Shown: positions 57,001 through 60,000 of the stretch, piece after piece
Position numbering within the stretch: position 1 is the stretch's first letter
Layout of the letters: the number at the start of each line of letters is the position of its first letter
NCBI RefSeq assembly: GCF_001677475.2
Contig: NZ_CP015229.1
Strand: one strand, 5' to 3'
DNA from: Escherichia coli
GTDB taxonomy: Bacteria > Pseudomonadota > Gammaproteobacteria > Enterobacterales > Enterobacteriaceae
DNA length: 64,000 nt
Program-made: the position numbers

Positions 57001-60000
57001 TCCAGCGCGGGCAATCTTTCGTCGATGCCAACAACTATCCGGTGGAAATCTGCAAGGTAACTCTTACTCAGGTGATCTACCGAAGACTCGACGGCAGAAC
57101 CCGAGCCACTTCAATTGGTGCATTTAATGAAGAATTTGAGCGAGTCGACCACAACGAACTACACATGATTAAAGCGGAAATTGAGAAGGAAATGCATATT
57201 GCCAGCCTTCGAAAAATGCGACGTACATCAATCAACTGACAACCGCCTTCGGGCGGTTTTTAATGGCAAAAATATGGATTCACACAGTATCACCCTCAAA
57301 GAGGCCTGTCAGTTTCTCAAGATATCAAGGCCAACAGCTGTTAACTGGATACGAACGGGCCGACTACAGGCAACACGAAAAAATTCTTCCGGTAAAAGAT
57401 CACCTTATCTCACAACCCGGCAAGCCTGCATTGCAGCACTTCATTCACCGCTGCATACTGTCCAGGTGAGCGCGGGTGATGGCATAACAGAGGAAAGAAA
57501 ATGTCACTCTTCCGCAGAGGTGAAATATGGTACGCCTCGTACTCGCTCCCGGGCGGGAAGCGAATTAAGGAGTCTCTTGGCACAAAGGACAAGCAGCAAG
57601 CTCAGGAGTTGCACGACAAGCGAAAAGCAGAACTCTGGCGAGTAGACAGACTGGGGGATATGCCAGATGTCACTTTCGAAGAAGCCTGCCTGAGATGGCT
57701 TGAGGAAAAAGCCGACAAGAAATCCATCGATTCCGATAAATCCAGAATCGCATTCTGGATTGAGCATTTCGAGGGAATAAGGATTAAGGATATATCGGAG
57801 GCAATGATCTACTCAGTTATCAGCAAAGCGTATAACCGAAAAACAAAGGAGAGATGGAAGTTGCAGGTGGAGGCTGCATTAAGAAAAGGGAAAGAACCAC
57901 CAGCCTATATACCTAAATCGGTGAGCACGCAAACAAAAGCAACACACCTGGCAATGATCAAGGCTATTCTGCGCGCCGCAGAGCGAGACTGGAAATGGCT
58001 TGAAAAAGCACCTGTAATCAAAATACCTGCCGTAAAAAACAAACGCGTGAGATGGCTGGAAAAAGAAGAAGCCAGGAGACTCATTGATGCATGTTCTGAC
58101 CCCCTGAAATCTGTAGTTAAATTTGCATTGGCAACTGGCCTGAGGAGATCAAACATTATTAATCTGGAGTGGCAACAAATCGATATGCAGCGACGTGTTG
58201 CCTGGGTAAACCCTGAAGACAGTAAGTCAAACCGCGCTATTGGGGTCGCACTGAATGACACTGCCTGCAAGGTGTTGCGTGATCAAATAGGCAAACATCA
58301 CCGCTGGGTGTTTGTTTATACCACTGCTGCCAGAAGGCCTGACGGGACAATGACACCAAGCATCAGAAAGATGCGCCTGGACTATAACACATCGTGGTTA
58401 ACAGCATGTCGTCGGGCAGGAATTGAAAATTTCCGTTTTCATGACCTCCGCCATACCTGGGCCAGTTGGTTAATTCAGTCAGGTGTACCGCTGTCAGTAC
58501 TTCAGGAAATGGGCGGCTGGGAGTCTATCGAAATGGTGCGTAGGTACGCACACCTTGCACCTAATCATTTGACAGAGCACGCGAGGAAAATTGACGACAT
58601 ATTGGGTGACGATGTCCCAAATTTGTCCCACTCTGAGGTTTTTGAGGATGCAAAGAAAGCATAAGCAATTGAATTAGAATGAGTTAAGCTCACGCTTTCA
58701 AGTGGTGAGCAACAACTTTAAAGATCTTGGCCCGGAAGTCAGTTTCCGCCGTATTTATGAATATGCTGGCGGCGACTGGCAGGAAGATAATGGCGTCTGG
58801 CACCAGAACGTGTTCGCTTATTATCTCTCCATCTCCTGTAACCATTGCGATGACCCCGCATGTACAAAAGTCTGCCCCAGCGGCGCAATGCATAAGCGTG
58901 AAGATGGCTTTGTGGTGGTTGATGAAGATGTTTGTATCGGCTGCCGCTACTGCCACATGGCTTGTCCGTACGGCGCGCCACAGTACAATGCTGAAAAAGG
59001 GCACATGACGAAGTGCGATGGTTGTTATTCGCGCGTCGCCGAGGGGAAACAACCCATATGTGTCGAATCCTGCCCGCTGCGTGCACTTGAGTTCGGTCCA
59101 ATTGAAGAGCTGCGCCAGAAGCACGGCACTCTGGCTGCCGTTGCGCCACTGCCGCGCGCGCATTTCACAAAACCCAATATCGTTATCAAACCTAACGCCA
59201 ACAGCCGCCCGACCGGCGATACCACTGGTTATCTGGCTAACCCGGAGGAAGTGTAAAATGGGAAATGGATGGCATGAATGGCCACTGGTTATCTTTACCG
59301 TATTGGGTCAATGCGTAGTAGGCGCGCTGATTGTTAGCGGAATTGGCTGGTTCGCCGCCAATAATGACGCAGACCGTCAGCGTATTGTCCGTGGCATGTT
59401 TTTCCTCTGGCTGTTGATGGGCATCGGGTTTATTGCCTCTATCATGCACCTGGGATCCCCACTGCGGGCGTTTAACTCGCTGAATCGAATCGGAGCTTCT
59501 GGTCTGAGTAACGAGATTGCTGCCGGTTCCATATTTTTTGCCGTTGGCGGATTATGGTGGCTGGTGGCAGTCATCGGTAAAATGCCGCAAGCGTTGGGGA
59601 AACTCTGGTTACTTGTCAGCATGGCGCTCGGCGTCATTTTCGTCTGGATGATGACCTGCGTGTATCAAATCGACACAGTGCCAACCTGGCATAACGGTTA
59701 CACTACGCTGGCTTTCTTCCTGACAGTATTGTTGAGCGGTCCAATACTTGCTGCCACAATTCTGCGGGCAGCCCGCGTTACATTTAATACCACACCATTT
59801 GCCATCATTAGCGTTCTGGCGCTGATCGCTTGTGCCGGGGTGATTGTGCTGCAAGGTTTGTCTCTGGCGTCTATTCACTCATCCGTACAACAAGCCAGCG
59901 CACTGGTACCAGATTATGCCTCCTTACAGGTCTGGCGTGTGGTATTGTTATGCGCAGGTCTAGGATGCTGGCTTTGTCCGCTCATTCGTCGCCGTGAACC

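Follow-up and report, generated by a model that had tools for sequence, protein, structure and literature searches.

An attachment junction in ynfG of Escherichia coli that very probably belongs to an stx-free, 933W-like lambdoid prophage

The gene ynfG is a recurrent integration site for 933W-like phages, including Stx1 phages of Shigella flexneri, S. sonnei and some STEC. PCR placed the S. flexneri phage phiPOC-J13 in locus S1742, and new lysogens of strain 2457T and of E. coli MG1655 carried it in S1742 and ynfG respectively, integration being site specific (Gray et al., 2014; PMC4193171). Phage 75/02 integrates at this site in ynfG too (Toth et al., 2016, as cited in PMC5447701), and the Stx1a prophage of strain RM10410 (O113:H4) has been described with the arrangement ynfG-(62,500 bp)-ynfG (Carter et al., 2023; PMC10562709). 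Neither the integration site nor the phage family is new, and it is against this background that we compare a further occupied ynfG locus.

The DNA analysed here is a stretch of 64,000 nucleotides from E. coli (contig NZ_CP015229.1 of assembly GCF_001677475.2), hereafter the window. Its positions 58665-59256 are very probably the attR of an stx-free lambdoid, 933W-like prophage that a phage tyrosine integrase inserted into ynfG (Table 1). An earlier note, made from the sequence alone, had proposed that a prophage lies inside ynfG and has left a 5'-truncated copy of the gene behind; the uninterrupted locus, both junctions and attP all agree with that proposal.

Table 1. Features of the prophage, its right attachment junction and the adjoining ynf genes, in window coordinates.
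Feature	Coordinates	Strand	Details
Prophage body	1..58723	.	933W/VT2-Sakai-like short-tailed lambdoid; truncated at the window's left edge, extends to the attR core
IS21-family element	9936..12344		istA + istB; 8-bp target duplication CGCTCAAC
TerB-family ORF at the stx position	35914..36345		PHROG 632
xis, excisionase gene	57274..57645	+	full-length match to PHROG 2907 excisionase, E 2e-43
int, tyrosine integrase gene	57501..58664	+	387 aa; Pfam PF00589 at residues 184-355, E 5e-45
Phage-derived attR arm	58665..58716	+	between int stop and core; holds GTG 58702 and five codons MVSNN
GTG ORF as first called	58702..59256	+	184 aa, MVSNN + YnfG 27-205
attR common core (overlap region)	58717..58723	+	TTTAAAG; sole stretch identical in attB, attL, attR and attP
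ynfG 3' fragment, pseudogene	58717..59256	+	codons 27-205; without Cys group I C14-x2-C17-x2-C20-x3-C24
ynfH, membrane anchor subunit	59258..60112	+	transferred from annotated locus L001, offset 55,716; ORF end agrees
dmsD, Tat proofreading chaperone, last gene of the operon	60155..60769	+	transferred from annotated locus L001; ORF present

On the phage side of the junction, the int product also matches the PHROG 10426 and PHROG 1 integrase families. The xis ORF overlaps the start of int, and its match to the TIGR01764 excisionase DNA-binding domain (28.4 bits) falls slightly below the curated cut-off of 28.8. The int gene stops with TAA at 58662-58664, the core begins 52 nt further on, and the spacing of 37 nt first counted between the end of int and the GTG-initiated ORF (GTG at 58702) was found again. 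All DNA upstream of 58717 is of phage type: as far as the att core, the int region shares 99.4-99.6% identity with its counterparts in Shigella phages 75/02 Stx and POCJ13, Escherichia phage PhiR5_2 and phiSTEC1589-Stx1c, and the short arm between int and the core has the sequence context of the int-proximal attP arm, as seen in 75/02 Stx (KF766125.2) as well as in contig L012 of IMG/VR. The int gene and the ynfG remnant occupy different reading frames, so that a fusion protein is impossible.

On the chromosomal side, homology to the species at large starts abruptly. A 1-kb query over the junction found matches in 5,336 of 5,426 complete E. coli genomes, nearly all of them beginning at query position 418 (58717 in window coordinates), within annotated ynfG-ynfH; in about 5,300 E. 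coli genomes, then, DNA homology to an uninterrupted ynfG begins at that nucleotide. The entire query, integrase included, was matched in 88 of the 5,426 genomes (the attR junction; complete RefSeq E. coli match it at 99.6% identity at best), and the corresponding attL junction was found in 81. These genomes come from human, animal and wastewater sources, and the proportion of complete E. coli genomes with ynfG split in this manner is about 1.5%. In the uninterrupted locus used as reference (L001), ynfE-ynfF-ynfG-ynfH-dmsD-clcB are contiguous and the site reads ...GCGTGCAAAGATTTTAAAGATCTTGGCCCGG..., while the window junction reads ...GGTGAGCAACAACTTTAAAGATCTTGGCCCGG...; in the alignment with an uninterrupted ynfEFGH locus that the earlier note had called for, the window aligns from 58717 onward.

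The protein comparison places the break at the same point. As first described, the 184-aa ORF begins MVSNNFKDLG in place of the native N-terminus. Against native YnfG (205 aa), BLASTP aligns its residues 1-184 to residues 22-205 with 179/184 identities, and the five mismatches are exactly its first five residues. A match to YnfG was thus rightly seen, although it had been put at about residue 23 and identity in fact starts at F27. The existence of a GTG-start ORF is all that speaks for taking the N-terminal difference as mere allelic variation in an intact ynfG, or as an alternative natural start, and the alignments to native YnfG refute the allelic variation that had been named as fatal to the prophage interpretation. 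Native ynfG has 26 further N-terminal residues with ynfF ahead of it, whereas the 1.3 kb preceding 58717 consists of int/xis DNA that three ynfG-integrating phages share at 99.4-99.6% identity, and the missing 5' part of the gene lies 64 kb away, beside ynfF. We regard that explanation as exceedingly improbable.

An assembly artefact, in which a phage contig was misjoined to the chromosome, deserves equally little credence. Prophage regions are repeat-rich and at times misassembled, but the identical attR recurs in 88 complete genomes from unrelated sources, with the reciprocal attL in 81, and the breakpoints have an exact 7-bp core in common, as expected of site-specific recombination. The junction of phiPOC-J13, moreover, has been verified by PCR (PMC4193171). 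The PCR across the junction that had been suggested as a check was carried out here in silico only: the published attR primers fall at 58225 (0 mismatches) and 59448 (1 mismatch) and predict a product of 1,224 bp, the published amplicon size (PMC4193171).

The genuine junction allows the crossover to be narrowed to a few base pairs. Homology between L001 and IMG/VR contig L016 (described below), which carries the left junction, ends at L001 position 3007, and homology between L001 and the window begins at L001 position 3001, leaving exactly 7 nt in common. These are TTTAAAG, namely the ynfG codons for F27 and K28 followed by the initial base of the D29 codon. The same core is present in attB (L001, 3001-3007), in attL (junction match H1 and L016), in the attR of the window and in attP (KF766125.2 and L012). 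The earlier note had placed the core within the codons for KDLGPEVSF; it does overlap the first K-D of that stretch, but lies mostly just upstream. Lambda-type tyrosine integrases, too, usually have an overlap of seven base pairs.

The attP sequence was obtained from two records in which it is contiguous. In the circular record KF766125.2 (Shigella phage 75/02 Stx) it spans the origin and reads ...GGTGAGCAACAACTTTAAAGTTGGTTACG..., and an exact 28-mer attP search of IMG/VR returned contig L012, in which the same attP is contiguous: window homology extends to position 12265 and homology to the attL phage arm starts from 12259, an overlap of exactly TTTAAAG. The junction of an excised attP circle would read ...GAGCAACAACTTTAAAGTTGGTTACG..., and the attL of E. 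coli 2009C-3133 (NZ_CP013025) reads ...GCGTGCAAAGATTTTAAAGTTGGTTACGTATCG.... PhiR5_2 (PV340546) was set aside as a source of attP, its deposited ends being short of about 25 bp around the core, and the KF766125.2 and L012 sequences were used in its place. Candidate arm-type sites, predicted from their repetition on both attP arms, comprise three copies of (G/C)ATGCAAAG together with TGTCCCA-type repeats. In the paralogue dmsB the core position reads TACAAAG, and these two mismatches may explain why ynfG, and not dmsB, is the target. The explicit 7-bp core, consistent across attB, attP, attL and attR, is a modest addition to the literature that we found on this site, where it is not stated.

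The left end of the prophage had likewise been predicted to carry a matching direct repeat outside the window. A search of the whole window for TTTAAAGATCTTGG with up to two mismatches returned the attR copy only, so attL lies outside it. The first base of the window falls within a homologue of a gene of 8.4 kb that encodes an LPD38-domain protein. The exact 40-mer at its start was absent from species-representative genomes and present in ten IMG/VR contigs, nine of which are 92-96% identical to the window; L016 (IMGVR_UViG_2721755653_000006, 66,625 nt) is 100% identical to window positions 1-2595, over all 2,595 overlapping bases, and reaches 7,961 nt further left. This extension comprises the 3' part of ynfF, then ynfG codons 1-28, TTTAAAG and the phage arm. 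The predicted repeat is there: the attL core begins 5,476 nt to the left of the window's first base, and the ynfG 5' stub encodes MTTQYGFFIDSSRCTGCKTCELACKDFK followed by VGYVSFKIN*, that is, nine phage codons after codon 28. On the strength of the 2,595-nt identical overlap we equated L016 with the genome of the window. Provided that L016 represents the same or a near-identical genome, the position of its attL core 5,476 nt to the left of the window and that of the attR core at 58717 give a prophage of 64,192 bp from core to core.

Taken together, the four sites suggest how the locus arose. Recombination very probably occurred between attP (...GAGCAACAAC-TTTAAAG-TTGGTTACG...) and attB (...GCAAAGAT-TTTAAAG-ATCTTGGCC...), with strand exchange, by analogy with lambda-type tyrosine integrases, probably taking place inside the 7-bp identical overlap, which is today the direct repeat at both ends of the 64.2-kb prophage. 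The outcome is a ynfG 5' stub (codons 1-28 plus nine phage codons) beside ynfF and a 3' fragment (codons 27-205) beside int, the latter deprived of the four cysteines of the first motif, of the native ribosome-binding site and of its link to the operon promoter.

The consequences for the host gene can be read at several levels. In DmsB-type four-cluster subunits, two of the [4Fe-4S] clusters, out of four, draw ligands from cysteine group I. The loss of this first Fe-S motif from the truncated copy, already remarked on in the earlier note, is borne out by the absence of C14, C17, C20 and C24; Cys groups II-IV are kept. The truncated YnfG still scores 222 bits against TIGR02951 (the DmsB/YnfG four-cluster Fe-S subunit; cut-off 214.1), a match that covers only profile positions 25-161 of 161. 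The 20 nt before GTG 58702 give an anti-Shine-Dalgarno pairing of -0.6 kcal/mol, compared with -8.7 for native ynfG and -6.0 for int, and neither of the two candidate GTG codons has a Shine-Dalgarno sequence (-0.6 and -0.4 kcal/mol). Lacking both the first cysteine group and a Shine-Dalgarno sequence, the truncated ynfG is a pseudogene. The start had been described as junction-derived, and the GTG does come from the phage arm; with no ribosome-binding site, it is not a functional new start. It is a product of mechanical ORF calling, being the first in-frame start codon in the phage arm, and the 184-aa ORF should be annotated as a ynfG pseudogene fragment. RefSeq treats the equivalents in 2009C-3133 in the same way, the 3' fragment as a pseudogene ('incomplete; missing N-terminus') and the 5' stub beside ynfF as another ('4Fe-4S binding protein, missing C-terminus').

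Certain phages whose target is a gene bring a replacement end for it. Reconstitution of ynfG in this way was weighed and discounted: MVSNN is all that the phage arm encodes, without a Cys motif, and the fusion at attL ends after nine phage codons.

The selenate/DMSO-reductase-like operon is also split, as had been supposed: the prophage cuts ynfEFGH-dmsD within ynfG, and ynfH and dmsD now lie 64 kb from ynfEF and from the operon start and promoter. YnfG is the electron-transfer subunit between YnfE and YnfH (PMC5203670). We infer that YnfG function is lost and that the insertion exerts polarity on ynfH-dmsD.

A different outcome would be that the phage has remodelled the gene into a functional 184-aa, three-cluster ferredoxin, translated from the GTG at the junction, with read-through from int keeping ynfH-dmsD switched on and controlled by the phage. 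The ORF is open and in frame, int and ynfG'-ynfH-dmsD are co-oriented, and the 52-nt phage arm holds no convincing terminator; a scan of 57200-59400 for promoters and terminators gave matches no commoner than in shuffled sequence, and one terminator-like match, at 58733-58748, lies inside native ynfG sequence. On the other side, neither GTG has a Shine-Dalgarno sequence, all four group I cysteines are gone, and the phage arm supplies no replacement N-terminus. We also counted against it that int is ordinarily poorly expressed in a lysogen, as is known in general from lambda. A remodelled, working gene is accordingly very unlikely, and we retain the view that the fragment is a pseudogene.

The genes downstream of the pseudogene raise a related idea. 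Given the shared orientation of int and ynfG'-ynfH-dmsD and the lack of a clear terminator between them, read-through from pI/pL could put ynfH, and especially dmsD, under phage control; or reversible excision could act as a switch of selenate/tellurate reduction ('active lysogeny'). Either would be an outside chance at best. If true, it would mean a switch, or phage control, in some 1.5% of E. coli, those with a prophage of this family.

The body of the prophage is of the short-tailed 933W type. Its late region (12400-35400) is 95-96% identical to 933W and VT2-Sakai over 91% of 23 kb, and the gene order in the window is collinear with the Stx1a prophage of 2009C-3133. No stx was detected in the window prophage by tblastn with StxA1 and StxB1 (best E = 0.8); the ynfG-integrating Stx1-converting phages have their stx1 operon downstream of Q. 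Three tRNA genes (36515-36764) lie beside the TerB-family ORF, and the best match of this stx-position region among complete RefSeq E. coli is 93.7%. The IS21-family element disrupts a small hypothetical gene and is absent from the 2009C-3133 relative. The same integrase/att module is borne by stx-free phages as well, here with a TerB-family gene at the stx position.

Among described phages, the closest in the integration module are POCJ13 (phiPOC-J13, KJ603229) and 75/02 Stx (KF766125), both Diegovirus of the Sepvirinae, whose int regions are 99.4-99.5% identical to that of the window over 1,316 nt. They have the same attP core and arms and the same ynfG/S1742 site, but carry stx1a, whereas the window prophage is without stx and has the TerB-family gene and the IS21-family insertion. 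The 61-kb Stx1a prophage of 2009C-3133 (NZ_CP013025) has the same attL and attR and the same gene order, with 87-98% DNA identity over most of its length, and RM10410 is itself among the attL-junction matches (H92); the prophages of these two strains (61-62.5 kb) carry stx1a and no IS21 element, in contrast to the 64.2 kb of the window prophage. PhiR5_2 (PV340546; recorded host E. coli K-12 MG1655) has a 99.6% identical int and a cargo region unlike that of the window prophage; it has no annotated stx, so stx-free relatives are already on record. With lambda the window prophage has in common a tyrosine integrase and an excisionase, a 7-bp identical overlap in a short core, an int gene beside att, and candidate repeated arm-type sites on both attP arms; lambda, however, targets the intergenic region between gal and bio, while the prophage described here targets a protein-coding gene through a different core sequence.

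Repeated motifs occur on both arms of attP, the uninterrupted phage attachment site, which is contiguous in the IMG/VR contig L012. Three copies of (G/C)ATGCAAAG lie on the arms, the first within the 3' end of the integrase gene int, about 62 nt to the left of the 7-bp core, and the other two 79 and 99 nt to its right as part of ATGCAAAGCTTTGT; TGTCCCA-type repeats are likewise present on the left and right arms. These arm repeats are candidate arm-type Int/Xis binding sites. The core position itself reads TTTAAAG in ynfG (window 58717-58723) but TACAAAG in its paralogue dmsB (82% identity; about 300-306 of the dmsB locus L010), and the choice of target may be set by the F27 codon of ynfG versus Y27 of dmsB. 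Relative to the attP of related phages, some 25 bp (ACTTTAAAGTTGGTTACGTATCGTT) are missing between the two ends of the 'complete genome' record of PhiR5_2 (PV340546.1), a phage with a near-identical int, and this record was probably cut out by prophage coordinates.

Features of the prophage and of attP (window coordinates unless stated)
Feature	Position	Strand	Remarks
Repeated motifs, both attP arms	58613-58655; L012 12155-12391		
Homologue of 8.4-kb gene for giant LPD38-domain protein	1 to about 6961	-	
IS21-family element	9936-12344	+	2,409 bp
istA	10029-11528		within IS21-family element
istB	11525-12280		within IS21-family element
Target duplications flanking IS21-family element	9928-9935 and 12345-12352		8 bp, CGCTCAAC
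TerB-family ORF ('tellurite resistance', PHROG 632)	35914-36345	-	143 aa
Three tRNA genes alongside TerB-family ORF interval	36515-36764	-	
Recombination module	53110-56940	+	gene names per annotation of 2009C-3133 relative

This prophage has an unusually complete recombination module, in which a 689-aa RecE-family exonuclease is followed consecutively by Gam, Bet and a lambda Exo-family protein; RecE-like and Exo/Bet functions therefore share one prophage.

The IS21-family element, absent from the related prophage of E. coli 2009C-3133, interrupts a small hypothetical gene of the prophage; this insertion could alter the viability of the prophage or leave it unchanged. The prophage has no Shiga toxin genes at the stxAB position of related phages. 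That position has the Q region on one side and the SASA/NanS-type esterase gene on the other, and is occupied here by the TerB-family ORF instead. The neighbouring tRNA genes comprise Arg-TCT, Arg-TCG and one with a CAT anticodon, which is called Met by ARAGORN but Ile in RefSeq relatives. At the left window edge, which cuts the gene so that the window starts inside it, the prophage carries a homologue of the giant LPD38-domain protein gene typical of 933W-like phages.
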